A stretch of DNA of 63,162 nucleotides, the filler included, from Stramenopiles sp. TOSAG23-6 (lineage: Eukaryota): NCBI GenBank assembly GCA_900128565.1. It is 40 parts of 40 records of this genome, joined end to end, with 100 filler letters (N's around TTAATTAATTAA, not from the genome) between each part and the next. Parts side by side here need not be neighbours in the genome. Positions count along the whole stretch, not along the records: positions 20,639 to 22,123 come from LT638987.1; positions 22,224 to 23,707 come from LT638988.1; positions 23,808 to 25,291 come from LT638989.1; positions 25,392 to 26,874 come from LT638990.1; positions 26,975 to 28,456 come from LT638991.1; positions 28,557 to 30,038 come from LT638992.1; positions 30,139 to 31,620 come from LT638993.1; positions 31,721 to 33,201 come from LT638994.1; 32 more parts are not named here. The stretch is one strand, 5' to 3'. Every line of letters starts with the position of its first letter. The stretch's first letter is position 1. The notes below the pieces were generated by a model. The model ran no database searches and was not told the origin of the DNA. It worked only from the letters and a program-made list of their open reading frames with translations. The translations under genes were made by a program, and so were the position numbers. This document shows, one piece after another, positions 21,522 to 47,422 of the stretch.

Positions 21522-22123
21522 ATGATAATGGTAATATGGTATATTCTATTAGCACATTGTTTTGTCATGGTAATTTCGAACAAGATACAAAAAGTCCAGC
21601 AGCAACAGTCACTTAGTTCATATTTCACTTTTGAAGAAGCTCCGGAGAATACTGAAAAAACTCCCCTGTTTGATCCTATTTCGTTGCCACAATGGCCAAC
21701 AAGAACTTTCACATCGAGCGATAATAGCGATGTTTCTTATCCATCACATTTGCAATCATCTTCATTTTTGGAGACATCTGCAAACGATTTAGGGTTAGGG
21801 TTAGGCTCGTCTGGTTTTAAACACTGGGACGGAACTTTTCTCAACGAAAATCCACTCTCTCAAGTATCTGAATTTTTGGACAACCAAGATCGTAAATACG
21901 AAGTGCTAGTAAAGAGACATAATGACTCTACAATTGAATCTACAGGGGAAAGATTTATGTCACTTTTGGAAATTGGACAATCAACAAGTATAAAAATGAA
22001 AAAAGTACACGTACGTATTTCATGATGAATTTTAAATTTATTTTTTTTTCGTACGAAATTTCGTACCTAACAATTTTTTTTCTACAATATTTTTTTACAA
22101 TACACGCTTTTTGTGAGATTTGT
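21522..22123 (+). CDS. Secreted protein, possibly with a saposin-like domain (intron 22011-22105)
   Basis: Signal peptide; spliced junction KVH|AFCEIC. Confidence 0.55.
22011..22105 (+). other. Introner-family intron, GT...AC, AC duplicated
   Basis: CAC|GTACGT...CAATAC-AC|GCT; contains the perfect palindrome GTACGAAATTTCGTAC. Confidence 0.8.
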
Positions 22124-22269
22124 NNNNNNNNNNNNNNNNNNNNNNNNNNNNNNNNNNNNNNNNNNNNTTAATTAATTAANNNNNNNNNNNNNNNNNNNNN
22201 NNNNNNNNNNNNNNNNNNNNNNNTGTACGTAANAAAAAAAACAAAAAAAACATATTTTTCACAATACAT

Positions 22270-23707
22270 TTCAAAGCATCTGAATTAAAAGAATTATTTT
22301 CAGTCGAAAGTTTGAATCTTAAAAGCTCTCACTCACAGTCTGAATTATTGAAGCTTCATGGAATTGAACTTTTGATGTCTGGAGAACATTCTAATCACAT
22401 TAAGACGTTAGTAAATATGCCTGGTGTTTTTGGTCTCACTGATCATACAGCTGTGTTTACTAAAGGTATTGCTTCACCTGTTTCGTCGCACACCCAGAGC
22501 TGCGACGTCACTGCGGAAGGTACTAAAAGAGAAAATTCTGCAAATATTAATTGTGTTGAACGTGCAAAGGAGGAAGCAAAAGCTGCAAGATGTAGACTAA
22601 ACACTAATTATGTTGAGCGTCGAACCGCAAAGAAGAATAGGAATATAAATGATGCGAAAGAGAATTTGAATACAGAAAATATAAAACTTGGTACAAATAG
22701 AGATGGTTTAGATGTCGATGATGTAAAACTAGAATTGAAATATTCTTTGTCGAAACTAAATAAAAACAATTTGAGAGAAGATAATTCCGATGTTGTCAAT
22801 GAAGATGTAATTGATATTGATTGTCATGAGAAAAAAGATAAAGTTGAAAATATTTTGGAATCTATTGATATTACCCGTAATTTAACTGATGCGTTTAATG
22901 AAATGGATATATGTAATAATAATGACGATATTCCGTATAATACATCTGAATTTGTTATTCTAGATAATAATGTAATGTCTCAAGATAGTGATCATGATAT
23001 TGATAATAATATAATGTCTCAAGATAGTGGTAATGATAGTGATAAAACCGAATGTACAGTCGTTATATCAGATTGTATAGACGATAATAGCGTTGAATAT
23101 ATTAAAGAAATATCTGTGAAAGTTGATGACGATTGTGAAAATGATGAAAATGATCTTCAAAATGATTCTGATGACACAGTATGTACTATAGTTATGTCGG
23201 ATTCCCCAGATGCAAATAGTAACAACACTGAATTTGTACCAAATTATGTACCTAAATCTTATAAAAATAATTCCTTTAATGAACGAAAAATTTCAGAAGC
23301 CAGTAAAAGAGCAGATAGTGATGAAGAAGAATTGTATGAAGCCAGTAAAAGAGATGAAGAAGAATTGTATGAAGCCAGTAAAAGAGCAAATAATGATGAA
23401 GAAGAATTGTATGAAGCCAGTAAAAGAGCAGATAGTGATGAAGAAGAATTGTATGATAGCTTCTTATCTTGTAATAGTAAAATAGATTCACATATAGAGA
23501 GTGATGCTGAAAACAATACAATGAATGAAAAAGATCTTTCTTACACTGGGATTTGTGAGTCACCTATAGTAAGTACTACAAAACAATCTATCCCGACGAA
23601 ACCTACAGGCCAGTTACAGTTAATTCATTCACTTCAAGAATCACCTATCATAAGAACAACGAAAAAACAAATTATGCTATCACCATTAAATACTCCAATA
23701 AATTCAT
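22270..23707 (+). CDS. ERCC6L/PICH-like SNF2 helicase, post-helicase region and acidic tail
   Basis: FKASELKELF (compare RYFSKQELRELF) and HIKTLVNMPGVFGLTDHTAVFTK; EEELYEASKR repeats. Confidence 0.6.
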
Positions 23708-23807
23708 NNNNNNNNNNNNNNNNNNNNNNNNNNNNNNNNNNNNNNNNNNNNTTAATTAATTAANNNNNNNNNNNNNNNNNNNNNNNNNNNNNNNNNNNNN
23801 NNNNNNN

Positions 23808-25291
23808 TGTACGTAACAAAAAAAACAAAAAAAACATATTTTTCACAATACATTTCAAAGCATCTGAATTAAAAGAATTATTTTCAGTCGAAAGTTTGAA
23901 TCTTAAAAGCTCTCACTCACAGTCTGAATTATTGAAGCTTCATGGAATTGAACTTTTGATGTCTGGAGAACATTCTAATCACATTAAGACGTTAGTAAAT
24001 ATGCCTGGTGTTTTTGGTCTCACTGATCATACAGCTGTGTTTACTAAAGGTATTGCTTCACCTGTTTCGTCGCACACCCAGAGCTGCGACGTCACTGCGG
24101 AAGGTACTAAAAGAGAAAATTCTGCAAATATTAATTGTGTTGAACGTGCAAAGGAGGAAGCAAAAGCTGCAAGATGTAGACTAAACACTAATTATGTTGA
24201 GCGTCGAACCGCAAAGAAGAATAGGAATATAAATGATGCGAAAGAGAATTTGAATACAGAAAATATAAAACTTGGTACAAATAGAGATGGTTTAGATGTC
24301 GATGATGTAAAACTAGAATTGAAATATTCTTTGTCGAAACTAAATAAAAACAATTTGAGAGAAGATAATTCCGATGTTGTCAATGAAGATGTAATTGATA
24401 TTGATTGTCATGAGAAAAAAGATAAAGTTGAAAATATTTTGGAATCTATTGATATTACCCGTAATTTAACTGATGCGTTTAATGAAATGGATATATGTAA
24501 TAATAATGACGATATTCCGTATAATACATCTGAATTTGTTATTCTAGATAATAATGTAATGTCTCAAGATAGTGATCATGATATTGATAATAATATAATG
24601 TCTCAAGATAGTGGTAATGATAGTGATAAAACCGAATGTACAGTCGTTATATCAGATTGTATAGACGATAATAGCGTTGAATATATTAAAGAAATATCTG
24701 TGAAAGTTGATGACGATTGTGAAAATGATGAAAATGATCTTCAAAATGATTCTGATGACACAGTATGTACTATAGTTATGTCGGATTCCCCAGATGCAAA
24801 TAGTAACAACACTGAATTTGTACCAAATTATGTACCTAAATCTTATAAAAATAATTCCTTTAATGAACGAAAAATTTCAGAAGCCAGTAAAAGAGCAGAT
24901 AGTGATGAAGAAGAATTGTATGAAGCCAGTAAAAGAGATGAAGAAGAATTGTATGAAGCCAGTAAAAGAGCAAATAATGATGAAGAAGAATTGTATGAAG
25001 CCAGTAAAAGAGCAGATAGTGATGAAGAAGAATTGTATGATAGCTTCTTATCTTGTAATAGTAAAATAGATTCACATATAGAGAGTGATGCTGAAAACAA
25101 TACAATGAATGAAAAAGATCTTTCTTACACTGGGATTTGTGAGTCACCTATAGTAAGTACTACAAAACAATCTATCCCGACGAAACCTACAGGCCAGTTA
25201 CAGTTAATTCATTCACTTCAAGAATCACCTATCATAAGAACAACGAAAAAACAAATTATGCTATCACCATTAAATACTCCAATAAATTCAT
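23808..25291 (+). repeat. Duplicate scaffold of 22224-23707
   Basis: Identical except that one N is resolved; identical ORF set. Confidence 0.97.
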
Positions 25292-25391
25292 NNNNNNNNN
25301 NNNNNNNNNNNNNNNNNNNNNNNNNNNNNNNNNNNTTAATTAATTAANNNNNNNNNNNNNNNNNNNNNNNNNNNNNNNNNNNNNNNNNNNN

Positions 25392-26874
25392 TTTAAAGTA
25401 GAGAGTAGAAATTTTTTTTTAAAAAGTAGATTAAAAAAAAAAAAAGCCGTTTTTCTTTTTTTTCTTTTAATGCATATTGTTTTGCATTATCATCAAATAT
25501 CTCCGTAAACTCGGATGTTGATTTATCTTTTTCTTGCATCTGATTTGTTAGTCGTTTGTGATCTGCAAGCCTTATTTTAACAATTTCTTCAGCATTTGCG
25601 TAGTATCGAAATATTTGCTGCAATTGTAATGAATTATCCCAAACTAAATCTTGACAATAATTACTACCAAAGATACTTTTTCGAAACCAACTCGCATCAG
25701 TACGCCGTGCAATCTATAAAGAGAGTTGGACTAATTTCACATTTTCCAAGAATATACTCCCCTGCATCAATTGCTACAGATTTGAAAATACTGATGACAT
25801 CATCGCGAGAAAACTCGATATCTATTTTCTCTTGTAATTCTTCTGTCACTGACGTGACTACACCTTTTTCTTTATCTGCTCTTGATAGAATCCGCGTATC
25901 TTCGATAAAGTTTAAAAATTCCTCTTCACTCAATTGGCGCTGTCCTATTTCGTCCTTAAAATCAATACCAGTAGACAGGCAATAATACTGAAAGACACAT
26001 TGGTTATCTTCTGCAGTCATTCGAAGGTATTTATTTACGCTATCTGTCATCTTATAATAGTCTACAATTAAATTGTATTCAACAGCAATTTGTTTTAATT
26101 GACTAAAGGATATTCGACAAAAAATCAATTGGGCACGGAGAGATTCTTCCTGGACCATTCCAAAGATATTAGTGTGCATATCAGCAACTGTTTTCTCAGC
26201 CAAAGCTTTTTCTTTTTCTACATATTGCTTATGATGGCTCATTATGTCTTCAAGCTGTTTAAAGAATATATCCGTTTCAGATTGGAGTCGNNNNNNNNNN
26301 NNNNNNNNNNNNNNNNNNNNNNNNNNNNNNNNNNNNNNNNNNNNNNNNNNNNNNNNNNNNNNNNNNNNNNNNNNNNNNNNNNNNNNNNNNNNNNNNNNNN
26401 NNNNNNNNNNNNNNNNNNNNNNNNNNNNNNNNNNNNNNNCATACGTTCTAAACTATTTTCTTTTTCTTTTCGAAGATTTTTTAATTTATCAATTTTTTCC
26501 ATATTTCTTTTATTACTGCTATCATGAGCTAAATGAATCCACTTTTCAAATATTTCACGTTTGTCAATCATTTTCATCATTTTAAATGTCTTCTCTGCCA
26601 GTTTAGTTTTGTACTGTTGCTGCTTTAGCTGTATCAGGATTTTATTTCTCCAATGACATACGTTCTAAACTATTTTCTTTTTCTTTTCGAAGATTTTTTA
26701 ATTTATCAATTTTTTCCATATTTCTTTTATTACTGCTATCATGAGCTAAATGAATCCACTTTTCAAATATTTCACGTTTGTCAATCATTTTCATCATTTT
26801 AAATGTCTTCTCTGCCAGTTTAGTTTTGTACTGTTGCTGCTTTAGCTGTATCAGGATTTTATTTCTCCAATGAC
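25392..26874 (-). CDS. EF-hand-like hypothetical protein, gapped or frameshifted
   Basis: VFQYYC...LSEEEFLNFIEDTRI and LQQIFRYYA in different frames; ~215-bp duplication next to the gap. Confidence 0.45.
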
Positions 26875-27043
26875 NNNNNNNNNNNNNNNNNNNNNNNNNN
26901 NNNNNNNNNNNNNNNNNNTTAATTAATTAANNNNNNNNNNNNNNNNNNNNNNNNNNNNNNNNNNNNNNNNNNNNATAAATTCGATTTTTTTTTTTTTTTT
27001 TTACCGAGAAAAAAAAAAAAAAAAAAAAATTTTTAGGAAAAAA

Positions 27044-27087
<44 letters not shown>

Positions 27088-27148
27088 CAATTTCAAATAT
27101 TTCAAAATATTTCAAATTTTCAAAAAAAATAAAAGATATAAAAGATAC

Positions 27149-27726
27149 ATCATCACCATGCCCCAAACGACCATGATCTCCATGACCCCAGGTATATAGC
27201 AATCCATCATTACTTACAGCAGCAGTATGTTCACATCCACCATCAGTGAATGAAATGATGATTTCATTATCAACAAAATAAGAAACTTGAGTCGGTATTT
27301 GTTTATCTTCATTATCACCATGCCCTAGTTTTCCATTATTTCCAGAACCCCATGTATACAATACACCTTGATTTGTTACAGCCATTGAATGATCCCAACC
27401 ACAAGCAACATGTATTTTGGAAAAATATTTCAAATTTTTTTTTTTAGTTTTTTTTTCCATAAAGAAAAAAAAAAAAAAAAAATCTTTTTGTTTTCTAAAA
27501 AAATTTACTATGAAATTTTTTTTTTTGAAATTTAAAAAACCAAAAAATAAAAAACATACATGTACAACATGTTCTTCCGAAAGGGCAAGAATTCTTCGAG
27601 GAAACGTTTCTCTAGAAACACTACCATGACCTAAAACGGGTGGGATGACTGGATGCCTTGAATCACTATATCCAGAACCAAAGGAAAAAACACTTCCATT
27701 AATAGTCAAAGCAATAGTGTGTTCCC
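27149..27726 (-). CDS. RCC1-repeat protein (intron 27410-27559)
   Basis: VVH|VACGWDHSMAVTNQGVLYTWGSGNNGKLGHG. Confidence 0.93.
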
Positions 27727-27793
27727 ATGCATTGTGGAAAAATATTTCAAAATTTTTTTTTTTTTTTAGTTTCAAAAAAAAAAAAAAAAAAAA

Positions 27794-27827
<34 letters not shown>

Positions 27828-27919
27828 TATTTTTTTTGTTTTTTTGTTTTCTATGAAAATTTCGTATGAAAACAAAAACATAAAAAACATAAATATTTGA
27901 TAGAATGATAAAAACGTAC

Positions 27920-28341
27920 ATAATAGATGGTTTACGATAATCACCCCAAATTTCGTGTGGTTTGACTTGTGTCATTTTTGTATATGCTTCAAACGCTTTA
28001 TCAGCTGATATTTCTGGAGTATGTGTGAGTTTTGCTGTGCGATGTGGAGATGGTTTGATCCATACACTTCGAGCGACGACTGCATGTAGTATAGCAAAAT
28101 ATATCAAATTCGAAATTTGTGAGAAAAAAAATTTATGAAATTTTGTTAGGTATGAAATTTCGTATGAAAAAAAAAAAAAACGTACAAATGATTTTTTTTT
28201 CTCTTTCTGTTTCAAATCTGTCGAATGTTGTCGTTCTGCTGCTTTACTTCGTAGAGCACGAATGCTTCTCAGTGGAGATTTGACCACATAAGAAACTAAT
28301 TGTAAAGTTTTCGACATGTCAGATCCTAAGGGAGTGTCATT
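27920..28341 (-). CDS. Two exons of a hypothetical protein (intron 28084-28185)
   Basis: Open frame bounded by family introns. Confidence 0.55.
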
Positions 28342-28556
28342 ATGTATTTTGGAAAAATATTTGAAAAGAAAATTCGTTAGGTACAAAATTTTTATAAAAA
28401 AATAAATTCGATTTTTTTTTTTTTTTTTTACCGAGAAAAAAAAAAAAAAAAAAAAANNNNNNNNNNNNNNNNNNNNNNNNNNNNNNNNNNNNNNNNNNNN
28501 TTAATTAATTAANNNNNNNNNNNNNNNNNNNNNNNNNNNNNNNNNNNNNNNNNNNN

Positions 28557-28790
28557 TATTTACTTCCTGTGATTTTTTCATGTCTTTCGATTTCGGGTGT
28601 AGCATTTATGACAAAAAAGTGGATTATTGAACCAATAGAAATAGAAAAAGCTCAAGATTGCCGTGATAAGTTAGTTGCCTATGTCAAGTGCATGGAAAAG
28701 CATAAAGGTATACGCCCTGACCCGTATGAGTTAGAGTGGTGTAATGATGAACGTGATGCATATAGAGAAAGCAGGGGGTTGGATACGTAA
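28557..28790 (+). CDS. Small membrane-anchored Cx9C-type protein C-terminus
   Basis: Hydrophobic segment then CRDKLVAYVKC...WCNDERDAYRE. Confidence 0.55.
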   Translation, partial: YLLPVIFSCLSISGVAFMTKKWIIEPIEIEKAQDCRDKLVAYVKCMEKHKGIRPDPYELEWCNDERDAYRESRGLDT

Positions 28791-28853
28791 AAGCGTTTAT
28801 TTATTTATAATATTTAATGAATGTTAATTTGAAAACATATCGTTTCGTCGTTG

Positions 28854-30038
28854 CTAATCATCCAAGAACGTCGTCATGGATTCCACATAGTCATCACCTA
28901 TTGCTGCTTTCAATAACTCAGTTAACTCTTTTTCAGTTTCTTTAATTGTTTTTTCGTTTGTATTTGACTCTTTATTGTATATACCATTATCTTCTTTTTG
29001 CTCTCTAGGTTCATATGAGTGTCCAGTAAGCGATGATTTATGATCAAGTGTAGATAGTGAAGTATTTTGAATTTTTAGTCTTTTCGTGTGACTGTCGTTT
29101 CTCATTTTGGGTGATCTACCACCTGTCTTCGGCATTTTAGCTGCTTTAAGCGCAGAAGAAAGATCATCAGAAGAAATGCCCATTCGATCCACGGTTCGAT
29201 TGATCTCTTTTGAATTCTTCAAAACCACTTCAAATTCAATTCTAGGAGAAGACGGAGGAGCTCCAAAAGGACAACCATCCAAAACTTCATCTGACTCTGA
29301 CTCATCACTATCCCATGACTTCAATGATGGATCAAAATCTTCCGTCGACAATTCCAATTCATTCAACCTTTCTCCTCTATTTTTATTCTCGCCTTTTGTA
29401 TCAAAAAGAACCATTTTATCACCATCGTTTAATTTTTCCGGGATGGACCTAGAGCTACATCTCCCACGCCAACGTGCAAATAAGCGGGATATTCTCACCG
29501 AGCTGGGATGTTCAGTGCCCATAAGTGACCACTGTAATTTCAGAGCACGATCCATTAGCCGAAGACCTAAGTAAGGGTCACAACTTCCAACATTTTCCAT
29601 GCCTGCTGCAAGTTTTGCGCGGTTTGAGTTGATAACATTTAATTTTGCAATTGCTAATTGTGTCATTGCTTCAACCACTGAAGCATGTTTATCACCATGC
29701 CAAGATTTTGTTTCTATTAATATTTCTTTGCAGATTTGCTCCTGATCAACGTGTGGGCATCGAATTGCATTTAGCTGTGTTATGCGTCGCTTTGTAATCG
29801 TAATTTCTGGGGATACTTCAAAATCGGAAATGTCCCGCCATAGATTAAAATCAACAAATTTCTATTTTTTGCGATGGATAACGCTTTATTTATCAAATGA
29901 GAAGCATGTAGTTTCCGCTGCATCTCTTCTGCAACGTTCCACGACCAATGCGATGCAGCTCTGGATATAACATGAGTCTCATTATCTTCCTCTCGTAACA
30001 ATATATGAAAGGTACCTCGCCACTTACACCATGTCCAC
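28854..30038 (-). CDS. TPR-like protein C-terminus
   Basis: HGDKHASVVEAMTQLA and LMGTEHPSSV kinesin-light-chain-type motifs. Confidence 0.6.
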
Positions 30039-30192
30039 NNNNNNNNNNNNNNNNNNNNNNNNNNNNNNNNNNNNNNNNNNNNTTAATTAATTAANNNNNN
30101 NNNNNNNNNNNNNNNNNNNNNNNNNNNNNNNNNNNNNNAGGTATAAAATTTACTACAAAAAAAAACTCGATTGTAAAGAAAACAAAACATAC

Positions 30193-31620
30193 AATCGCAT
30201 CTGGAAGAAATGTTAAACCATTACTATTTAAAGACAATGTCATTAATGAATTACGGAATACATGTATTTCGGGAAAATATGTCATATAATAAACCACATT
30301 TAGTTTAGGTATAAAATATTGTAATATTTTTTTTTTTTAAATTTATAAAAGTTACCCAGCCAATCCTTCGAGGAAGTTCATTAAGGCTTTGTCCAGTTAA
30401 TCGAAGTGATTTAAGATTTTTTATACTAAATATTCTTGAATCTAAAACACGAAATCCTTTCCAACAAGCATTCAAGTCGCCCTGTGATGTAAAATACAAT
30501 ATTATATTTGTTTTATAAATAATTATATTATATTTGGAAAAAAAAAATAAATTCAAAATAAATTCAAAATTGATATAAAAATAAATTCAAAATTGATTAA
30601 CCAGGAGTACTTACTGTTTTTGTTGCAGATTCAATGATTGGTCTCCACAATTCAAGATATGCTGCTTTTGACCTTTGTTTTTCTTCATCTTGTCGAATAC
30701 GTTTCTCTTCCATCATTTTAAATATATTGTAAAAAATATTTCAATTTTTTTTTCAAATTTTGTTAGGTACAAAATTTCGTACGAAAAAAAACCAAAAAAA
30801 ATAAAATTCATAATGAAAACGGACGTCTACGTTTTCGATATTCGGCTCGTAATTCATGATTAGTTAAATTAATCCAACTGTGTGACATTTCATTATCATG
30901 TGTACTATTTAAATTAGAAATTCGAATATCTTCTTGTTGCTGTGCAATTCTTTTTTGTTGTATGACTGAAAGTGAAAAATATTCTGCAGATCCAACAACA
31001 TTCTTTTTTAATGATAATTCGTGTTTTTCTTTTTTTTTAAGATTTGAAAGATATTCTTGTAATGTTGTATTTTCTTCAACCTGTGTGCTTGTAGGGTTAG
31101 GGTTTACTTTCTTTTTACGGTTTTGAATACTTCCCTTAAATATTTCTTTTCCTGTAGAATCCGTAGTTAATTTTGTACCTAATGAATTACCATTACGATA
31201 TTCTGGAACAGATTTTGATAATAATAAACCAANNNNNNNNNNNNNNNNNNNNTCGTGATGCATTTTTTTTTTGTTCTAGATTTCGTGATTTGCTTTTCAT
31301 TTTTTTTAATATAGCTTTTGCTTCAATAAATCGTCTTTGTTTTCTCGTCATTTTTTTATTTTTATTTTTTTTCATATGAAATTTGTTACTTGAAGGTTTA
31401 GTGTTTAGCTTGTTTTTTGTATCTATAGATTGAACTTTTGCAACGTTTCTTTGATCATTCATTTTTTGTTTTATTTGTTTTATTTTTTTCATTTGTTTTA
31501 TTTTTTGACGTTGCAATGCTGCTTGTTTTCCCCTTTTGTATAACTGTCTTTTTCGTGCTGCTATGATCCCACCATCAATACCCAGTGGTTCATTACCAGA
31601 ACTACTCATGTCATCACAAC
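30193..31620 (-). CDS. Leucine-rich-repeat protein, partial (introns 30722-30824, 30482-30614, 30262-30355)
   Basis: Spliced YRKRRLKMMEEK...ATKT|GDLNACWKG...LKSLRLTGQSLNELPRRIGW|VFRNSLMTLSLNSNGLTFLP. Confidence 0.8.
30482..30614 (-). other. Canonical GTAAGT...CAG intron
   Basis: ACA|GTAAGT...CATCACAG|GGC keeps frame; lacks the family core motif. Confidence 0.8.
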
Positions 31621-31739: not shown

Positions 31740-31818
<79 letters not shown>

Positions 31819-31864: not shown

Positions 31865-33082
31865 ATGGTTTGTACAAAAGATACACTTTTTTGTATTTTT
31901 CGTATCATCTGATGGATTTCGTGTATTAGACGAGTCTTTATTTAAAGATGTAAACCCTAACCCTAAATCCATTTCAGAATTATAAAAAATACTTTTAATT
32001 TTTTTGACTAAAAAATGAGTCATTATATAAACATTACCGGGTACCTCACATAGTGCTTGCCATAATGAAAGCATACATTTTGGAATTTGAATAATATGTT
32101 GTTGTTGTTGCATGTGATGTACAAAAATATTCTAGAATTGAAATTTTTGTAAGCAAGAAAAAAATTTTTGAAAAAAAAATTTTTGAAAAAATTTGAAAAA
32201 AAAAATTTTTGAAAAAAAAANAAAAAAAAAATTTTGAAAAAAAAAAAAAATCCACAAACAACAAACATACATTCCATTTTTTTGAAATCTGGATTCTAAT
32301 TTTTCATAAAAATTATTTCCATTAAAAATGACGTCAGAAGAATCATTAAAAATTGAGCAACTATTAAATTTCTTCTTATTTGTATTTCGCATCATTTCAG
32401 TTAATATAATTAATTCATTAAGAAATCCTGTTTGAACGTTTTCAATATTTTGATATTGCCTAGGGTTAGGGTTATTAGGGTTAGGGTTACAATTTGAAAA
32501 AAGAACAATTTTTTTTGCCCATGGTATCGAAGCATTTATGATGCATAATTGTGAGCTCAATGATTGGTGAATCACTTGGCGTGTCATTTCTAGTAAATAA
32601 CGACAAGCATATGATGAAATAGTATATTTCGTGTTTTTTTGTACAGTCAGTGGTGTTGTGACACGTGGCATACTCACTTTCACAACTGATTTTTTTTGAT
32701 TTTTTTGATTTCGTGTATGTTGAACATTTAAATGTTGATTTAAATGTTGATTAGGGTTAGGGTTAGGGTTTGGACATACTGTTGACAATGACTCAACTAA
32801 TGAAGAACATAACAATTCAGACACTTTGTATTGAAATTGTAGAATAGCTTCAGAATTATTTGGAATATTTCGACACGAAATACCAACATTATGTATTGTG
32901 AATTTTTTTTGTTGATGTTTCATTCGTTAGAAAAAATGTTTTTCGTGTTTCGTTTTTCGTGTTTCGTTTAGGTACAAAATTTTGTATGAAAGATAAATTG
33001 GTAAATTGGTAATATGTACATACATGAGCTATAGACTTCCAAATTTGATGTTCAGTCATGGACACATGGGACGGTACACCAC
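31865..33082 (-). CDS. Multi-exon hypothetical protein
   Basis: SIAH|NVGISC across intron 32891-33023; the phase across 32117-32270 is unresolved. Confidence 0.5.
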
Positions 33083-33301: not shown

Positions 33302-34025
33302 CCGCGTCTCAGAGCCAGAGTTAAAGGCTATGGTTGATGAAATATTCGGGGATGATGTTGCAGCGGTGTACACTGAAGAAGGTGCTGAAATATTATCTAA
33401 TTCACACCGGCAAGAAATTTTGATGAAAGCACCTCCAATGGTAAAAGACTTCTTATCTAGAAATTTCTCAAAGTCGGAGGTTCTATTACTATGTAAAGAT
33501 CTACCTAGAGATGATGTAGGAGGACTGAGTTTCCACGATTTACAAGCAAAGATTTTAGCACTTCGAGCATCAAGGATAGAAAAATGCAAACTTATGACAC
33601 GAAAAGAAGAACCTAAAGTTGAAAAACGAAACAAAAAGAGAAAAGAATCTGGAAAGAAATGGGGCGAAATTGAGAAAATTCATGATACAGAAGGCTTTAA
33701 AATTATGAACAGATTATTGCATCGTAATGCATATCAAATAACATCAGTTGGGGATCCAGGAAATCCTGCAATAGTACAAAATGTCCGCATTTTGAGAGAA
33801 CGCTATGTATGTTTTAAATTAAAATTAAAACATCTTTTTTTGTATCAAAATTTGTACGTTAACAAAACATTTGAAATTAAAATATTTTTAACAATACATG
33901 AAGGTTTAGAAATGGAGGAGTCTTGGGACCAAGATTGTTGTGGTAGATCAAACACTATGCAAACATTATATCCTTTTACAAATGAAAGAATTTCAAAAAT
34001 GCGAGAGGCAAAACATGGAAAGTAA
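33302..34025 (+). CDS. Hypothetical (EF-hand-like) protein C-terminus; 93-nt stopless intron 33807-33899
   Basis: GGLSFHDLQ; junction RERY|EGLEMEESW. Confidence 0.65.
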
Positions 34026-34782: not shown

Positions 34783-34975
34783 NNNNNNNNNNNNNNNNNN
34801 NNNNNNNNNNNNNNNNNNNNNNNNNNTTAATTAATTAANNNNNNNNNNNNNNNNNNNNNNNNNNNNNNNNNNNNNNNNNNNNATGTACGTTTTCGTTTCA
34901 ATTTTTAATTGATTTATTTTTTCATACGAAAATTTGTTCCTAACGAATTTTTTTTTTTTTAATTTCACAATACAT

Positions 34976-37489: not shown

Positions 37490-37637
37490 GCAAAGAACTT
37501 CAATAATAAAAAAAAAAAATGGAAATATGTTATTTTTACTGTAAAATTTGAACCAACTTCAACGTTGTTTGATCAGATCTTATATGAAATTTTGTACCTA
37601 AAATAAACAACTATTAAATCGCACTTTCAAAACTAAA

Positions 37638-37889
37638 CTAAGCTGCCGTAAATTCTGCTGGAAAGTTGCTATATCCAGCAGTAATGATACCTACAATCAC
37701 ACCAAAGATTCCGAGCGCAGAGCCAAAAATTTCAACAATTAAAATTTTCACAAATAAAGAAGGATTTTGTGCGTCACTCAATGCACAACTACTCCCTGCA
37801 ATACCGACACATATACCCGAACCTATATTAGTAATCCCTACTGATAAACCTGCGGATAATACGGCAAACGACGAATAGTAAGCCGAATA
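37638..37889 (-). CDS. VMA16: V-ATPase proteolipid subunit c'', last exon
   Basis: [45 protein letters not shown]. Confidence 0.93.
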
Positions 37890-38819: not shown

Positions 38820-39114
38820 ATTTCTGGTAGTATGCGACGATAGATTTAGCAATAGCTTGACGGATAGCATAGATCTGAGAAACATGACCTCCACCTTTTA
38901 CACGGACACGGATATCAACCTTACCGAAGTAATCAGCTCCGAGCAATAAGACTGGTTCAACAGCCTTCTGGCGAAGTGGAGCTGGTTCGAGAAGCTCGAT
39001 TGGCTTTCCGTTGACACGGACTACACCGCGTCCTGCCTTGCAGTAGGATACTGCGACAGCAGACTTCTTGCGTCCGAATACTTGTACAGACTGAATTTTT
39101 TTAATGCCGTCCAT
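38820..39114 (-). CDS. RPS16: 40S ribosomal protein S16 (uS9), first exon
   Basis: [14 protein letters not shown]...[30 protein letters not shown], followed by a GTAAGT donor at 38819. Confidence 0.97.
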
Positions 39115-39625
39115 TATACTGATCTTGGTTTGCGTCGTCGCGAAAAANNNNNNNNNNNNNNNNNNNNNNNNNNNNNNNNNNNNNNNNNNNNNNNNNNNNN
39201 NNNNNGCACGGGAAAAAGGAGGCAAAAGCAACACACAGAGAGAAGAAGCGCACGAGGGTGGTCAAAAAAAACACTGAACACAAAATTTGGACAAACCTGT
39301 TTTTTTGAAATGAAACTTTTTTTTTTAACTTTTTTTGTCAGTTAAATTTTTTTGAGAGATCTTCGATTTACTGTTGTATTTATTGAGTCCTCCCAAAAAC
39401 AGCCACGATAATGCTTATTGCGTTCTTCTGGTGATAAAGTTTTAATTTGTGTATATCATGTTTCAAAGGAAGAAAAATCAAAAGGCCGAAAAAGAGCCAG
39501 ATATATTTGATTTTTCAAAAGATAGNNNNNNNNNNNNNNNNNNNNNNNNNNNNNNNNNNNNNNNNNNNNTTAATTAATTAANNNNNNNNNNNNNNNNNNN
39601 NNNNNNNNNNNNNNNNNNNNNNNNN

Positions 39626-40195
39626 ATATTTGTGCGTGAAATGAGCGTTTCAGTCAATGACGCAAATATTTCGAAATCGGAGTTAGTTTCGATGGGTGGA
39701 TTATTTCAACCTGCAGTGTTTGAGGGAACTCCTGCAATTTTAGAGATTCCTTTAAAAATACCTCCACATAGTTCAGCTATAATTTCTGTACCATTTGAAG
39801 CTGCGTTTTTACATTTGGAAGATTTTCCAGCTGATCCCTCACGTGGATTGGATCTTCCAGTATCTGTTGTGTCTGTAGTAGATGGATATGGAAGAGATAG
39901 TAAAATAGACAATGAATGTGATGAGACGGATGATTCAATAGAAAGTTCACCTTTAGTTGAATACATTGGGTTAGTTTGTGCAAAAAAACATCAATTGAAA
40001 AATGCTATTGGAAAAGAAAAGTCGTTTAAGCGTGATCATGTGCGGATTTATTCAAATTTACTTCTTGTTTTTATGCCCATGCCAGACTTTTCAATGCCGT
40101 ATAATGTAATTACTTTGAGTTCAACTCTTATTGCATTAATAACAGGTTCTTTAATAAATCTATATACACGCAAACGAAAAGGGAAAAAGGAATAA
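39626..40195 (+). CDS. PIGT: GPI transamidase subunit PIG-T/Gpi16, C-terminus
   Basis: FPADPSRGLDL...PDFSMPYNVITLSST. Confidence 0.93.
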   Translation: MFVREMSVSVNDANISKSELVSMGGLFQPAVFEGTPAILEIPLKIPPHSSAIISVPFEAAFLHLEDFPADPSRGLDLPVSVVSVVDGYGRDSKIDNECDETDDSIESSPLVEYIGLVCAKKHQLKNAIGKEKSFKRDHVRIYSNLLLVFMPMPDFSMPYNVITLSSTLIALITGSLINLYTRKRKGKKE

Positions 40196-40272
40196 GTAGT
40201 GAAGATTGATAAGAAAAAGAAGACATAAGAGATTTTAAAATGGTTGTTTTTTTTTGTTCAATTAAATTTACT

Positions 40273-41106
40273 TTATTTCACTTTATCAAGAAAATCACGA
40301 ATCTGTCCATCTAATGCATTGGCTAAATGACGTGTAACATGTCCACAACTATTTTGCTTTGTGTTACGAGTCAATCGATAAATATAGTCGTGTAGATCTT
40401 TTACTGTAGAAATGAAATCTTTACAGCGGCGAATCCGATCATCAAAACTTATAGGTTGTGAACTTACTGTACCAACTATACCATCTTCAGAATCTTTCAC
40501 AATATTTATTGTATCTCTAATATAATCAACATGAGATGAAATCAATGCTCGAGTTACTTGAATAGCAGAAATACAATAGCTTGCGTTAACTTTTGGTTGT
40601 TTTGATTGATGAGCATACTGAAATATGGAAGGTATAATTGATAAAAGTGCACAACTTTCTTGAAGAGAAAATCGTGCCCTACTAACATCNNNNNNNAAAT
40701 ATCTATTATTATTTGCTGAGGTTTTGCTGTAGCTATCAGTTTGATTTGTTTAATAAAATCAATGGTATTACCATTGTTCCATGATTTCTTAAGAGGTTCA
40801 ACAATATTTAATCTGTGATTCATTTCATCGATAAAATCTTCACTCTTATGACAGATTTCTAATTGAATATGATGGTCCATAGTATTAGCATTGTTGTATG
40901 GTGGACTCAAAAAATCATTGTAGTCTAAATTCACAATGTAATCTCTCCTAGATGAAATCATCATATTGTTATTAGTACTATCGGTATTTGTTGTGCCTTG
41001 TTTTTCTTCATTATGATGTCTATTTAAATTATCTAACGAATTTATCATTTTGTCTTTAGTAGGTTCAACTGATGATGATACATCCCTGGCTGCTTTTTTA
41101 CTCTCA
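40273..41106 (-). CDS. Katanin p80 C-terminal (con80) domain, gapped
   Basis: FIDEMNHRLNIVEPLKKSWNNGN...ISFDDRIRRCK. Confidence 0.7.
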
Positions 41107-41206
41107 NNNNNNNNNNNNNNNNNNNNNNNNNNNNNNNNNNNNNNNNNNNNTTAATTAATTAANNNNNNNNNNNNNNNNNNNNNNNNNNNNNNNNNNNNNN
41201 NNNNNN

Positions 41207-42642
41207 TTCGCATCGCTCTAACCTATTAGATTATGCTTTACTGCATTTAACAGTTTCACAAATATATAGAGCAGAAAATATTGAGAGCCAAAATGATGCT
41301 TTCATTAGTGAAAATATACAAAATGATGCCTTCATTAGTGAAAATATGAACATTTTAAGCCTTTCAATATCAAAAATGTCATTTGCTTCCTTTCAAATAG
41401 CAATGTTACTACACACACTCAACAGAGATCTTCCTGTGCGTTTAAATAATATAAAATGTTCATCGAAGTTGCTCTCAGGTATAAAAGGTAAAAGCACACC
41501 TTGTAGTAAATACTATGCATTTTTTGCTCTCAGTTTGCAAGTAGATTATGGTCGATTAACGTATGAAGAGATATCACTGGTTTCTAATCAATGGAATTCA
41601 GATTCAAAATGTATTGTAGAATTGAGTGGCATTACTCCAAAATACAATGGAATCATTGATCATGAGAAAAGTGAAACCAAAATGGATAATTTCACCTTTG
41701 CCTCTTTATCTCTCAGAAGTATTAGTCAATATAATTTAGCAGTTGCGTGGGCAAAAAACTTAAAGTCAAAATACGGTCATGGTTTTAACCCAAATATAGG
41801 CGGTAAATGGTGGTCCGCACCCCTGACATTAGTGACTAAAAGCATTGACAGCCTTCGAAAAGTAATCCATCACCACGTATGTTTTATTTTTTTTTCAAAT
41901 TCGATTTTTTTTCGTAAGAAATTTCGTACCTAACGATTCTCTCCTGTTCTTTATAGAATTAGAGAAAATATGGCACAATTGCTGAAACTGGCAGGTGTAT
42001 TACAAATAAGATTACATGCTGCATCTGGAAACATTCATGAAGTACAAAATACCCAACTGAGAGATGTTTTAGAATTCTACAATAGCAAAGAAGAGTTTGC
42101 AAAAAAGTATAAACTTGACTTTGAAAGTTTGTCTGTTGATTCGTATAAGAAAATGGATATTACAGCACGAGCTCTTGAAACATTATCCGGTATCTTTAAT
42201 GAATTTGGTATTAATGAGAGTAAGAAAAAAGAAACAAACCAAAAATGCAATGTAGAATCGTCTTTATATACTGAAGAAAAAGGCATGTGTGACTTAAGCA
42301 TAGGCGTGAATGTAGTAGATGATCAAAATAGTAATGATCAAATGCGACTATCTGAGGCAATACATAAATTTTTGAAGAGTTCAAATGTATCCAATAATGC
42401 GTCAATTATAGATCAAGTGGTACCGGAAGCTCTAATGAAGCATCCCTTTATGTTTGATTGGAATGCAACTCTTTTAGCCGGCGAACCGCTAACCAAGGTG
42501 GCTAGCAATATTGCGTATGAAGCATGTAAAGCAGCAAATTTGTCTGTCGACTCTGCAAGGTTTTCATCTGATTGTGTATCTGATTTAACTCGTAGATGGC
42601 TGACTATTTTACCCCACTCAATCACTGAGCAAGCTAAGCCTA
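41207..42642 (+). CDS. Hypothetical helical protein, internal exons (intron 41877-41954)
   Basis: Two long ORFs in the same frame separated by a family intron containing a stop. Confidence 0.65.
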
Positions 42643-42939
42643 TGTATGTTTTATTTTTTTAATTTCGATTTTTTTTTTCATAGGAANNNNNNNNNNNNNN
42701 NNNNNNNNNNNNNNNNNNNNNNNNNNNNNNTTAATTAATTAANNNNNNNNNNNNNNNNNNNNNNNNNNNNNNNNNNNNNNNNNNNNATAGGTTTAAATAG
42801 ATTAAAAATAAAAAAAATGAGCTTGAAAAACTTTTTTTTTATATTGACTGCATATTTCAAGTAGAAAAAAAAGAAAAAAAAGGTAGTTTAATCCAAATGT
42901 ACATAATAGTTTTTTTTCTTTCTTTTCAATCCTAATTAT

Positions 42940-43524
42940 TTATTCAAGAGTTACATTAATATGTGGATTCCTTGTCAATAAGACGGTTAAAAAACCAGTA
43001 ATTTTTTTATTTTTATCTACGTCTATCCCATATGAATCTATCCGGCCTTTTAATGGTAATCGAGCTTGCAATGGGAACTCAAATGTAGGAATGTAAAAAC
43101 CTCGTAGAGGGTCAGGTTTCCCCAAAGGTATCGTGACTTCTCCGGCAAAGTCGTCCTTCCCCATACTGTCTTTATCCCAAACTTGCAGAACAATCCTTGT
43201 GTTCATTGAGTGTAGTGAAGGAACATGTTTTAAGTGATACCAGCTAGGGCAACCAGTATTATCATGTTTTATTGTAGCAGTCTTGAATCTCAGTTTCTTC
43301 AATTCTGCAGAAGAATGATGCCTCGGATCGATCCATGGAATATCATCAAAAAACATTACTTTAACGTAAAAGTCGCCCCTGTGTTTTTCGATATTCAGTT
43401 CACAGTTGCGAACATTTTCTGCTTTCATTATGACGAGTTTGAATGGGTCTATTGCAAATTCTGTTTGTTCTTTACGACACTGAAGCATACGACAACATTC
43501 TGTCCCCATTATGGCGTAGAGCAA
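42940..43524 (-). CDS. C2-domain protein
   Basis: DFYVKV...PSW...LQVWDKDSMGKDDFAGEVTIPL. Confidence 0.85.
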   Translation of the reverse strand: MLYAIMGTECCRMLQCRKEQTEFAIDPFKLVIMKAENVRNCELNIEKHRGDFYVKVMFFDDIPWIDPRHHSSAELKKLRFKTATIKHDNTGCPSWYHLKHVPSLHSMNTRIVLQVWDKDSMGKDDFAGEVTIPLGKPDPLRGFYIPTFEFPLQARLPLKGRIDSYGIDVDKNKKITGFLTVLLTRNPHINVTLE

Positions 43525-43805
43525 ATGTAAAACGATTTGATGGTTGACCAGTTTGGTAATCGTTGGCGTTGGTAATTCAGTAATTCAATTGTACCAATTG
43601 TAGCGAATTGTAGTCGTTACAAAACAAACCTGGAAAACCTCCGCGGGACGACGATTTCGTGGTCCCAGAGCAGAGTACCGGGTACGTGGGTTTTCGTTTT
43701 CGAAAAAGAGAAAAGAGAGAAAAGGAGAAAAGATTCGAATTCGAATAACAAAAAAAACAAAAGACTTTTTTTTATTGAATTGTGTCGAGAGAAAACATAA
43801 AAAGC

Positions 43806-44265
43806 ATGGCACAGATTGGGAATTCACATCCCATAACTCTTGTACGCGAAGTAATTGATGATGATCTTTCGAAAATGACATCTCTTGATGAAAAGATGGT
43901 ATCTGAACTTCAAGCTCCAGGAAAATTGCCTATGCCCCAGTATGGAGCTAAATGGTTTGAGCGTCACTGTTCTCCAAGCCGTACGGCTTTTAGTAACTAT
44001 CACTCGCTTGCCGCGATTATTGATGGCAAGTCTGTAGGTTTTATCATATACTATAGATGTGGTCCTAGTGTTGGTGATGCAGGTGATACCTCAGCTAGTG
44101 TGGAAAATAATACAATGAAGAAAAAAACAAAGAAAAAAAAAAAAAGAGTTCTTTTAGGTCGAGATGCGTGGGCAGAAATTCTTTGGATATGCGTGGATAA
44201 AGAATACCGTCGACGCGGTATTGGTAGAACATTAATTTTATCAACTGCACAGTATGTGCGCCTTG
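43806..44265 (+). CDS. GNAT acetyltransferase, partial
   Basis: AEILWICVDKEYRRRGIGRTLI motif A. Confidence 0.88.
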
Positions 44266-44794
44266 NNNNNNNNNNNNNNNNNNNNNNNNNNNNNNNNNNN
44301 NNNNNNNNNTTAATTAATTAANNNNNNNNNNNNNNNNNNNNNNNNNNNNNNNNNNNNNNNNNNNNAGACAAAGTGTATCGAATGTTTTAGGAGATATTGA
44401 TTTTGATTTTTATCACACTAGTTTTGATTCTGTTTGTACGTTTTTAGTAACCCTAACCCTAAGAACTTTCAAAAAAAAAAATTTAATACAAAATTTCATA
44501 CCTAACAAAATAGTAATCAAAATTTTTTTAAATATGTACCAAAATATATTTATAATCAGTGCAATTGTGAGTAGTATAATTTTATTTATATCACATAAAT
44601 CAAAAATGTCAAGAATTAATCCTGCTTATAATCAAGTTGGAACTTTTGCCAATATTGGAGATGAAGCTCAAATGTTCAATCCATTTGGTTCATTTTCTAC
44701 CACTACAACTAGACCAAAAGGTACAAAAAAATGGTAGAAAAAAAAAAAAACAGATATCAATTTCAAACCCTAACCCTAATAAAAATGATAAAGA

Positions 44795-45493
44795 TTACTT
44801 ATTATTAATATTACGCACAGACTTACAATATCCCTCATGTTGTTTCTCTCCAACTGGCCCATTCTCTTCAAAAGAAAACAAATGTTCCTGTTTCACTCTA
44901 TCTCCATCAAAGACAATTCCCTCCTCTATTAAAATCTGTTTTTTTCGTGCTACTTCTGGTGAATTTCCATCCCAACTACCTGAGAAACCACCAAGACGTA
45001 AGTCTGAAGCAATAACTCTGTGACAAGGGATCATTGGAGCCCAATGATTTCTCCGCAATGCACCTCCTACAGCACGATATGAATTTGGTGAGCCTAAACC
45101 GATTGCAATGAATTTATATGTTGATACCTTCCCTTTTGGAATTTGGAAACAAAGTGACAATACTCTGCGTTGAAAGTCAGAAGGTTGATTTGTATCTTTT
45201 GTTCTGGCAAAAATAGCGTCTATTGAATCATGAGTTTTATTTGACATACGAATACGGTAAATTCCTCTATGTGATTTAGGATTGGCTATAACTTTGCCGC
45301 CTTTTGTAAAAACAACGATATTCTCTTCTGCCAATTCTAAAGCAATCTTTTTCACAATTGTCATAATCTTGAGCTCTCTCCATTTTTTTGGTTCAATACT
45401 GCGAGCTACTTCTGATGGACATATTGTCTTGGATACACCCCGTAGTTTCGTTAATCGAATTATTTCATCTCTAATTTGTTGTACAATTACCAT
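44795..45493 (-). CDS. DUF3253 winged helix fused to O6-alkylguanine-DNA alkyltransferase (Ogt/MGMT) domain
   Basis: KTICPSEVAR...WREL...RGIYRIR followed by IPKGKVSTY...RAVGGAL...IPCHRVI. Confidence 0.85.
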   Translation of the reverse strand: MVIVQQIRDEIIRLTKLRGVSKTICPSEVARSIEPKKWRELKIMTIVKKIALELAEENIVVFTKGGKVIANPKSHRGIYRIRMSNKTHDSIDAIFARTKDTNQPSDFQRRVLSLCFQIPKGKVSTYKFIAIGLGSPNSYRAVGGALRRNHWAPMIPCHRVIASDLRLGGFSGSWDGNSPEVARKKQILIEEGIVFDGDRVKQEHLFSFEENGPVGEKQHEGYCKSVRNINNK

Positions 45494-45944
45494 TATAATA
45501 AGGCTATATATCCTTTTATATATAGTAACTCGAAGTGGAGAGTGACTTTGTGATTTTGACTGACACGACACGAGNNNNNNNNNNNNNNNNNNNNNNNNNN
45601 NNNNNNNNNNNNNNNNNNTTGTATGTATTTATTTTATTATATATAGCTTTTATATATCATTATCTGAAACCATACCATTAGGGTTAGGGTTAGAATTAAC
45701 TTCTTCAAGAAAAGGAAAACTAGACTGTGTGCCTTTCCTAGTAACACTTATTCCCGAGACTTCATTTGCTAGTATACATGATTTCTCTATAGAATATTTT
45801 TGTGATAAATAATGCCCTAAAGCCCCATGGGTTTCAAAAAATATNNNNNNNNNNNNNNNNNNNNNNNNNNNNNNNNNNNNNNNNNNNNTTAATTAATTAA
45901 NNNNNNNNNNNNNNNNNNNNNNNNNNNNNNNNNNNNNNNNNNNN

Positions 45945-47422
45945 CGTGAGGAAAATCTTGCATGGTGTCTCTCGACAGAATTTCCTGCTGCTCGAGCTAA
46001 GTTTGTCGCTTCATTGCGTGAAATCATGCCAGGTTTATTGCATAATATTGCTGATCTTGTACGTTGTCTCATTTAATTTCAATTTTTTTTTGGTTTCATA
46101 CGAAATTTTGTACCTAACATGTTTACTTTTTTGAAATATTTGTTCACAATACTTCGATCTCAAATTGTGAAAGAAGTAACGTCTTCTTTATCAGCTTTTT
46201 CTCTTGTATTAGGGAAAGATTTGGATCCTCTTGCAAGCAAACTAATTGAAAGTTTATTGAAATTAACGTATATTACAATTCAATGTATTCGAGATTCGGG
46301 GTCAGATTGTCTGCGTAACATTATTCTATGTACGTCGACTGGCTTTCCTCGCGCAGTGATTAAAATTTTAGACGGCGCCAATTCAAAAAATGAAAAGTTG
46401 AGATGTCATGCAATGGCATGCCTTGCATTGGCTCTACGTCAATGGAATCCTTCCAGCTTTTCCAAAACAATTACTGAAGTGACTGCATCTATTAAAGCTG
46501 GCATAAGTGGATCTAGTCCTGATGTCAGGAGTACTGCAAGACAAGCACTTTTATGTCTAGAAATATCTTTCCCTGAAGAAGCACACCGTGTTGAAGCAGG
46601 TTTAAATCAAAGAAATATTCGTCAAATGCAACGTGATCGTTCAGAATTTTCTCCATCTCGTTTTGATACACTAGGACCAACACTTGGATCTACAGTAACA
46701 GATTCATCTTGTGCGGTTCAAAAATCATCTAAATATGGAAATTCTAAGCATCGGAGTAATGATAAAGCAACGACTACTATTCCCACAAGGAATCATCCTA
46801 AAACGAAATCAGTTTTTTCTCATAGTTACAGTGAATCTACTGGCACCAGCAATACTAGTGGTCCAGTAAGAGTTCACCAGCGTGATGAAAGAAGAGCTCC
46901 TTTTCACAATGCATCTGATTCTCATAGAGGAGGAAATTTATCTAAAGCTAAATGTCATTCTAATGAACATATGTCTACACAAGCATTACGGGTTGTAGCT
47001 CCAGCCCAACGTCATAGTGGACATCCATATCAAGGCGNNNNNNNNNNNNNNNNNNNNNNNNNNNCATCGTACACAACATTCAAGGATACATAGCCATACG
47101 AAACACAACCAAGATGAAAGTAGTACAAGTCTTGGCGGTGCTCGGAGAGTTACAACGAATACGTCTTCTATATCTCAATCATCACACGGTGCAAACATTT
47201 CTACGGATGTTCAACGTGATGAACAAGGAGCTCGTAGAATAGCTTCGACGACTTCAGAATCACATGTCACATCTGGTGTGCGCAAGCAAACAGTTAATAC
47301 AATGTCTGACATGGAACTCACAGATTCAGAAACTGCAAAACAACTTACATTGTCACAACTACTTCGTTTATCAGCTGATGATCAATGGCATAGCCGAGCT
47401 GCTATATGCACTGGATTTTCAA
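45945..47422 (+). CDS. CLASP N-terminal TOG-domain protein (intron 46059-46154)
   Basis: IADL|RSQIVKE conserved DLRS motif; PDVRSTAR. Confidence 0.85.
46059..46154 (+). other. Introner-family intron, GT...TT, TT duplicated
   Basis: GAT CTT|GTACGT...CACAATAC-TT|CGA TCT restores DLRS. Confidence 0.88.

Follow-up and report, generated by a model that had tools for sequence, protein, structure and literature searches.

Introners are the main candidate for bulk intron gain, and the short repeats that flank them are routinely read as transposon footprints. Micromonas introners are described with 3-nt target-site duplications (TSDs) beside clear terminal inverted repeats (TIRs), GT/GC...AG boundaries and a TSD that is co-opted as the acceptor (PMC11282704; Gozashti et al., PMC12130899). 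For the U12-type introns of Physarum, a transposon origin has been proposed from short inverted ends and a TA repeat (bioRxiv 10.1101/2020.10.12.336362). The introner elements of Amoebophrya have inverted repeats of 8-20 nt that form a hairpin and direct repeats of 3-5 nt (PMC7789003), and for the AG-AC and AG-AT introns of Fritillaria borealis a transposon origin together with an adapted spliceosome is proposed (PMC11282704). Here we analyze a family of short introns in 63,162 bases of DNA from Stramenopiles sp. TOSAG23-6 (GCA_900128565.1), hereafter the window, which begin with GT, mostly end in AT, and often carry at their end the last two bases of the upstream exon. A sequence-only reading of the window had taken them for an introner of transposon origin, a GTAT...ATAC element with a 2-bp TSD. 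We lean towards spliceosomal introns of one introner-like family, in which the two-base repeat would mainly be a splice code, AT|GT...AT, with an altered U1.

The family shares part of its character with each of these systems. Like the introners of Micromonas pusilla, it consists of many near-identical short introns in unrelated genes of a marine microbe. In Micromonas a duplicated flank can supply the acceptor, whereas here the acceptor is AT, the inverted ends span 3-4 bases, and 9 of the 11 informative copies lack the repeat. The Physarum case offers the same style of inference, rare GT-AT boundary pairs and a U12 binding site that changed along with the introns, but it concerns a minor-spliceosome TATCTT donor with the branch near the 3' end, whereas here the donor matches U1 and the branch lies ~36 nt from the end. 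Amoebophrya is likewise a marine protist, the majority of its introns are non-GT-AG, and they form repeated families with direct repeats overlapping the boundaries; no fixed terminal dinucleotides are described there and U1 is reported missing, in contrast to the invariant GT, the nearly invariant AT and the U1 present here. The F. borealis introns end in AC or AT, with an exonic TAC linked to the 3' site, but there the donor is AG and TIRs are present, whereas the donor here is GT. A partial literature search found neither a lineage with GT-AT as its main class nor the core motif described below.

Results

A multi-copy intron family in unrelated genes

The window is not one locus. It holds 40 contigs of 1,471-1,489 nt, ordered by decreasing length and joined by linkers of N44-TTAATTAATTAA-N44, and adjacent copies thus sample one AT-rich eukaryotic assembly (G+C ~32%) at unlinked places. 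The span 22011-46154 to which the sequence-only reading was assigned is merely the distance between the two informative copies with non-AT repeats (AC/AC and TT/TT, written here as exon end/intron end). The assembly is redundant, since contig 22224-23707 duplicates 23808-25291 and contig 52251-53725 duplicates 53826-55300 (pair identities 99.9% and 100%). No pair of contigs differing by an intron was found within the window.

Copies were collected by reading every GTAYGT site and every core in the window, and curation left 30 full copies, 13 with the 5' end only and 10 with the 3' end only. Twins in the duplicate contigs were counted once. The full copies are 73-193 nt long (median 102.5) and follow one order: a GTAYGTTTT donor, a T-rich stretch, the core GTACGAAATTTYGTAC running into CTAAC, and a tail ...AATAC plus two bases, usually AT. 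The upstream exon frequently ends in CAT, the downstream exon frequently begins with G, and the branch-like A lies a median of 36 nt from the intron end. With ≤1 mismatch allowed, the core 9-mer GTACCTAAC was counted 58 times where 5.3 would be expected, and 0 of 100 shuffles reached 58. GTACGAAATTTYGTAC is a palindrome that tolerates G-U pairs; within this hairpin, pair 5-12 varies between G-U, A-U and G-C, yet pair 1 is broken in many copies, and we draw no conclusion from it.

The likeness extends beyond these motifs. Among the 22 of 30 full copies that were aligned, i.e. those of ≤125 nt, pairwise identity averages 57% and reaches 87%, and the copies at 188-279, 60123-60214 and 60861-60953, in genes unrelated to one another, share 87% identity from end to end (~92 nt). 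Two subfamilies, GTATGTTTTA...CCAAAATAC and GTACGTTTTCAT...CACAATAC, differ jointly at both ends, and the long copies starting at 47919 and 55993 contain doubled cores. The host genes include those for acetyl-CoA synthetase, pyruvate kinase, CLASP, an RCC1-repeat protein and a MORN-repeat protein. The whole-length likeness across unrelated genes, the subfamilies and the doubled cores together indicate more than shared signals, so the introner-like family stands: two marks of introners, multiple copies in unrelated genes and likeness beyond splice signals, are both present. As nearly identical introns recur in genes that have nothing to do with one another, a mobile origin is reasonable. To that extent the introner origin put forward earlier is supported; the GTAT...ATAC element with a fixed 2-bp TSD is not.

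Related loci outside the window were sought with the core. A 19-mer matched three metagenome contigs, which are unrelated by their flanks and were taken as chance, and a 20-mer matched one contig of a Bacteroidales metagenome-assembled genome in the genome collection and nothing in the viral collection; none of these searches brought up a related locus. In the protein collection, the synthetase exon had matches of ≤67% identity and the CLASP exon had no match.

Intron boundaries and reading frame

The copy in the acetyl-CoA synthetase gene (188-279, +, CC/AT) gives the best-proven GT...AT boundary. Exon 56-187 aligns to residues 504-546 of 2p20_A and exon 280-615 to residues 547-646, so that excising exactly 188-279 joins the protein seamlessly, with no residue lost or added. 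An AG lying 4 nt further on would break the frame, and no AG is available at the intron ends. In the CLASP gene, the exon following the copy at 46059-46154 (+) has its first residue aligned with residue 90 of the CLASP2 TOG2 chain 3woy_A; the upstream exon alone gave no homology match. Four exons of a pyruvate kinase gene are joined in frame, up to the stop codon, by the removal of three family introns at 47663-47756 (+, AT/AT), 47919-48060 (+, AT/AT, with the doubled core) and 48161-48305 (+, AC/AT, no match). One of these exons matches PK_C and solved kinases, and exons 1 and 3 gave no homology match. A Pfam search of exons returned nothing for three short ones. The window contains two distinct pieces of pyruvate kinase genes on separate contigs, 856-1437 (-) and 47523-48362 (+), and family copies interrupt both.

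In a frame test, the boundary two bases after the terminal TAC (TAC+2) was compared with shifts of -1 and -2. Of the 30 full copies, 21 fit this boundary, 5 contradict it and 4 give no information. Read from the DNA, the introns are probably removed as GT...AT. Ciliate-type DNA elimination was considered and dropped, since a donor complementary to U1 and a branch motif are signs of splicing.

A U1 snRNA that matches the donor

The window carries a head-to-tail cluster of small nuclear RNA (snRNA) genes at 15890-16526, on contig 15882-17367: U5 (15890-16007, +, 76.8 bits), U2 with the usual GUAGUA branch-binding stretch (16010-16206, +, 138.8 bits), U1 (16229-16389, +; Rfam U1, 54.1 bits, E=1e-10 for the whole window) and U4 (16395-16526, +, 76 bits), with U1 sitting between U2 and U4. 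Major snRNAs were the only ones that the Rfam search found in the window.

The predicted 5' end of this U1, AAAACGUACAUGG, is the exact complement of CCAU|GUACGUUUU. It differs at three positions from the Rfam U1 consensus, whose 5' end is AUACUUACCUGG, and the three face exon -1, intron +4 and intron +7, where each fits the donor consensus CAT|GTAYGTTTT. Over the 28 donors with a readable upstream exon, the window U1 pairs at -1, +4 and +7 in 23, 27 and 25 copies, versus 0, 1 and 2 for the consensus U1, and the mean donor pairing is 11.3 of 13 positions versus 7.9 of 12. Because exon -1 T and -2 A pair with the window U1, the exon AT is part of the donor signal, as AG is elsewhere; likewise, the T run after the donor follows from the A run of U1. 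The coincidence of AT at both boundaries thus appears to be mainly the counterpart of AG|GT...AG|G rather than a target-site duplication, and it is quite likely that the splice code was rewritten from AG|GT...AG to AT|GT...AT with a matching U1. This code with its co-varying U1 is a more surprising result than the repeat itself.

Complementarity to U1 positions 8-11 (CAUG) extends to the acceptor CAU|G. Reich et al. (1992, Cell 69:1159) reportedly found U1 pairing with the AG of the 3' splice site in fission yeast; by analogy, the U1 bases that read the exon end could here also read the acceptor.

The spacers within the cluster are 2, 23 and 5 nt, which is too tight for separate promoters, and the cluster may therefore be one transcript that is then cut. 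A motif, CTCACGAG(T/A)TACTGAT, is common to the 3' ends of U5 and U4, and the ~150 nt after U4 look structured and matched no Rfam family.

The two-base repeat at the intron ends

The last two bases of the intron equal exon -2/-1 in 20 of the 30 full copies, in line with the 19 of 28 counted earlier, two more copies having been curated; copies with one end only were excluded from the match count. Eighteen of the matches are AT/AT. The two non-AT matches that the sequence-only reading had singled out are both seen: AC/AC at 22011-22105 (+), where the shared string is TACAC plus G, and TT/TT at 46059-46154 (+), where it is CTT. The frame test fits TAC+2 in the first, but its downstream exon runs for only 18 nt before the contig end, and its upstream open reading frame (ORF) matched no Pfam family; in the second the frame test is tied. 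That non-matching copies still end in AT, 8 of 9 in the earlier count, also holds here for 9 of 10, the tenth ending in AA (60123-60214).

The dinucleotide AT closes 19 of the 30 upstream exons and 27 of the 30 introns; base by base, A occupies exon -2 in 23 copies and T occupies -1 in 25, and the penultimate intron base is A in 29 and the last T in 28. With the cut copies, whose counts were added by eye, the corresponding figures for AT are 29 of 43 exon ends and 36 of 40 intron ends, against a background of 10.4% AT; of the 3'-only copies, 9 of 10 end in AT. As AT is so common at both exon and intron ends, AT/AT is nearly uninformative. Shuffling the partners 200,000 times gave a mean of 17.4 matches (P(≥20)=0.037). 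The informative copies are the 11 with a non-AT exon end, and 9 of them end in AT, contradicting simple duplication, and 2 match.

The position of copies within the family does not separate the two groups: divergence from the consensus does not differ with match status (P=0.62), and the non-matching CC/AT copy (188-279) and CT/AT copy are the 2nd and 7th nearest to the family consensus among the 22 aligned. A comparison of 8 positions at the junctions of 28 copies gave P=0.011, a value that again depends on the AC/AC and TT/TT copies; the copy at 34885-34975, whose upstream exon is 2 nt, was left out of this and every other test needing an upstream exon. The strings repeated at the junctions are ATG, CAT, ACAT, GTA, TGT and CTT, all pieces of the joined intron ends in differing registers, and this variable register is incompatible with fixed GTAT...ATAC ends and a fixed 2-bp TSD. 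The 2-bp TSD proposed earlier is not supported: the 18 AT/AT copies are no evidence for it, since the splice code would yield them, 9 of 11 informative copies speak against it, and the register varies. AT is the general acceptor, in full and 3'-only copies alike.

A cut copy at the start of the window (1-55, +) retains the 3' part only. As noted earlier, it reads ...TAC-GT before an exon, which was confirmed in the sequence; 3 nt further on comes a CAT in frame, which may be the acceptor actually used. The window does not include the synthetase exon that would precede this copy.

Inverted ends and candidate mobile elements

The inverted ends described earlier are visible in the consensus ATGTAT...ATACAT, on each side of which the AT under discussion accounts for two of the six bases. 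Inside the element, pairing is limited to GTA(Y)/(R)TAC, with base 4 paired in 13 of the 30 copies. When the first 16 nt were compared with the reverse complement of the last 16, the next 12 positions were no better than letter-shuffled arms (P=0.62), and there was no excess over the arms of other copies (P=0.94). The inverted ends are therefore real for 3-4 bases, and beyond these the arms are at chance; a TIR of ~8 nt or more, as in miniature inverted-repeat transposable elements, was not found. A transposase-encoding partner, as the transposon reading would predict, was also sought: no transposase, integrase or reverse-transcriptase domain was detected in the 20 largest of 64 window ORFs (≥130 aa), and the 1.5-kb contigs could not hold a full element.

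Other element classes were considered and rejected. In U12-type introns the donor is [AG]TATCCTT and the branch site lies 10-26 nt before the 3' end. The U12-type (AT-AC) class was dropped on the GTAYGTTTT donor, the position of the branch-like motif at a median of 36 nt and the exclusively major snRNAs. Helitrons have 5' TC and 3' CTRR ends and insert between A and T without duplication; the ends here are GTA.../...TAC(AT), and the AC/AC and TT/TT copies misfit insertion at A|T. Helitron introners without a TSD have been described (PMC12130899).

A pair of inverted cores, 19104-19124 (+) and 19143-19163 (-), flanks a T16 run inside or beside an intron starting at 19234 (-). It is either an antisense copy or a chimera of assembly or, if the sequenced DNA had been amplified, of amplification, and it was dropped as proof of antisense insertion.

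Further copies and other features of the window

The remaining AT/AT copies on the minus strand are those at 4228-4325 (frame fits), 19276-19378 (frame test uninformative), 27410-27559 in the RCC1-repeat gene, 27727-27919 (a long copy with a TGCAT tail, frame test against the TAC+2 boundary), 32112-32270 (diverged, without the core motif), 32891-33023 and 61822-61894 (short, 73 nt, frame test unclear or against). On the plus strand they are at 33807-33899, 34885-34975 (at a contig start), 35821-35912, 49273-49371 (TAAAT tail), 49453-49561 (GCATGT donor, frame test against the boundary), 49738-49852, 49941-50064, 55993-56124 (GTAAGT donor, doubled core) and 60861-60953, which lies in the MORN-repeat gene and is the nearest of all to the family consensus.

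Copies without a match include TT/AT copies at 28084-28185 (-, frame fits), 44436-44549 (+, with a CCCTAA insert) and 61956-62091 (-, frame test unclear or against), an AC/AT copy with a GTCCGT donor at 30722-30824 (-), and the CT/AT copy at 60614-60710 (+). The copy at 41877-41954 (+) lacks the usual TAC tail and follows an exon ending in AC; its end, placed by frame, is TTTAT (GT...AT). The AT/AA copy at 60123-60214 (+), at a contig start, has an AG 3 nt downstream as an alternative boundary. For the GT/AT copy at 53158-53267 (-), the frame test speaks against the boundary, and a GTGTAT donor 2 nt upstream would fit; the duplicate contig holds an identical twin whose 5' end is at 54842. The string GTGTATGT starts two copies, at 9641 (-) and 53267 (-). 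In the latter the reading frame agrees with a donor at the first GT, which precedes the usual donor by 2 nt, and in the former a CAT precedes the upstream GT.

The telomere-like repeat CCCTAACCCTA has 28 sites at ≤1 mismatch in the window against 0.18 expected, e.g. at 7973-8340, 20077-20126, 32461-32768 and 62419-62441. Most sites run in the sense direction of the ORF around them and translate as NPNPNP, and the repeat occurs within three introns directly after the donor (8831-8841, 19205-19215 and 44451-44461); the repeat includes CCTAAC, the branch-like motif. A 103-nt satellite (12.5 copies, 84% matches) occupies one contig at 11234-12518, and an exact 218-nt tandem duplication lies within one contig at 26440-26874. 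In a screen of nine sequencing runs, sampled words of the window were present in three seawater-metagenome DNA runs of one study at shares of 0.52, 0.36 and 0.32, and in three metatranscriptome runs at 0.10, 0.07 and 0.05, word shares that are no evidence of expression or habitat.

Discussion

The reading towards which we lean brings together the family likeness, the non-AG 3' ends, the seamless synthetase join and the U1 complementarity. In the mechanism it suggests, exon CAT and intron +1 to +9 would pair with a U1 whose 5' end changed to match, and AT would serve as the acceptor dinucleotide. U1 CAUG (positions 8-11) may also read the acceptor CAU|G, which would explain the joint change of both sites, and one U1 change could have moved both from AG to AU. 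The family probably spread by copying; a weak excess of junction repeats of ~3 nt in variable register (ATG, CAT, GTA, TGT, CTT) hints at short-homology insertion and not at fixed-end cut-and-paste. That all of these parts hold at once, i.e. a rewritten AT|GT...AT code, a U1 changed at three positions of which one perhaps reads both sites, and a near-whole intron set that is one family re-inserted via short homology, is a bold combination that we consider unlikely as a whole.

Several points weigh against this reading. The AC/AC and TT/TT repeats are explained neither by the splice consensus nor by end-pairing: two non-AT matches compare with a shuffled mean of 0.27 (P(≥2)=0.019), and these copies are the 5th and 3rd nearest to the family consensus among the 22 aligned, as young insertions with fresh duplications would be. 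The sliding ambiguity, i.e. how far, in bases, the boundaries can be moved with the mRNA left unaltered, averages 3.18 with a copy's own partners versus 2.80 shuffled (P=0.009, 28 copies) and is at least 3 in 20 of 28 copies versus 14.7 expected (P=0.002). Without the AC and TT copies these values become P=0.33 for the mean and P=0.06 for the count, and the excess of junction repeats is a weak signal that insertion leaves short repeats. The U1 may have adapted only once a transposon had produced AT|GT...AT introns in large numbers, as the match gives no order of events; its score of 54.1 bits is below the Rfam gathering score of 69.5, and its 5' end is a prediction. Five of the 30 full copies are frame-discordant (27919-, 49453+, 53267-, 61894- and 62091-), the GT...AT junctions are predicted from DNA, and the sample is 59 kb of short contigs.

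The strongest competitor takes up exactly the non-AT matches. A non-autonomous DNA transposon, GTAY...TAC with a 2-bp TSD mostly at AT, could have left a second copy that became the acceptor and drifted to AT, with U1 adapting later. The AC/AC and TT/TT pairs do occur in copies near the family consensus, and among the 7 aligned copies nearest to the consensus 2 of 4 non-AT exon ends match, compared with 0 of 7 in diverged or longer copies (Fisher P ~0.11); Micromonas and Physarum supply precedents (PMC11282704; bioRxiv 10.1101/2020.10.12.336362). Two copies carry the case for such a transposon with a 2-bp TSD, and nine contradict it. The copy at 188-279, which shares 87% identity with its closest relatives, would have to have changed from CC to AT by two substitutions, the inverted repeat ends at 3-4 bases with base 4 failing in the GTACGT subfamily, fixed ends cannot produce several registers of junction repeats, no transposase domain was found among the 20 of 64 ORFs scanned, and no copy is clearly seen outside an intron context. 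We regard this origin as improbable. It is also rather doubtful, though it dispenses with transposase, TIR and fixed duplication, that the intron itself is mobile, its RNA reverse-splicing at CAT|G-like sites and being copied to DNA, or a DNA copy integrating by homology to the joined ends (TACAT-GTAYG). Copy ends that always coincide exactly with splice sites would follow from it, as would the sense orientation of 21 of 21 frame-supported copies to their ORFs, the flank preference CAT|G(TA) (-3 C in 11 of 28, +1 G in 19 of 30), the null TIR test and junction repeats of at least 3 nt in 20 of 28 copies in variable register. The sense-only pattern in coding sequence is, however, also expected from selection after random insertion, the repeat excess is weak once the AC and TT copies are removed, and the model alone leaves the ends of these two copies unexplained.

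Two further explanations do away with insertion or with the repeat. Old introns might have been kept alike without any mobility, through splicing-signal constraint on the whole short intron, with the two non-AT matches due to chance; nearly every intron in the window shares the architecture, the conserved blocks include the donor, branch motif and acceptor, and P=0.019 is post hoc and based on two copies. We find this very hard to accept, as the 87% identity between unrelated genes reaches through spacers without a known signal role, the subfamilies differ jointly at their 5' and 3' ends, and the copies at 47919 and 55993 carry internal duplications. Hardly credible at all is a shift of the boundaries by two bases, to NN-GTAYGT...TAC with AT...AC as the common class, so that the repeat would be an alignment ambiguity. 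For the 20 matching copies the mRNA is identical under either reading, an A at the start and a C at the end of an intron are a known compatible pair of termini, and in 3 of 4 AC/AT copies the readings differ by a synonymous codon only. But the shift would turn AEAA|VVG of the synthetase into AEAD|VVG, where 2p20_A has A at residue 546, U1 pairing sets the cut before G, and neither the donor nor a branch motif a median of 36 nt from the end is U12-like. On this weighing, the family is real and probably mobile. The observations behind the sequence-only reading were partly confirmed; from its interpretation we retain a mobile family and set aside the TSD and TIR transposon as the explanation of most repeats.

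That the splice code itself yields the repeat here, with an snRNA gene from the same sample showing why, calls for caution in assigning TSDs at splice junctions. If the proposed code is true, a genome whose introns run GT...AT as a rule and whose U1 fits them would serve as a natural experiment on acceptor recognition and on the joint change of snRNA and introns, and gene finders built on GT-AG would miss most exon junctions in the source organism.

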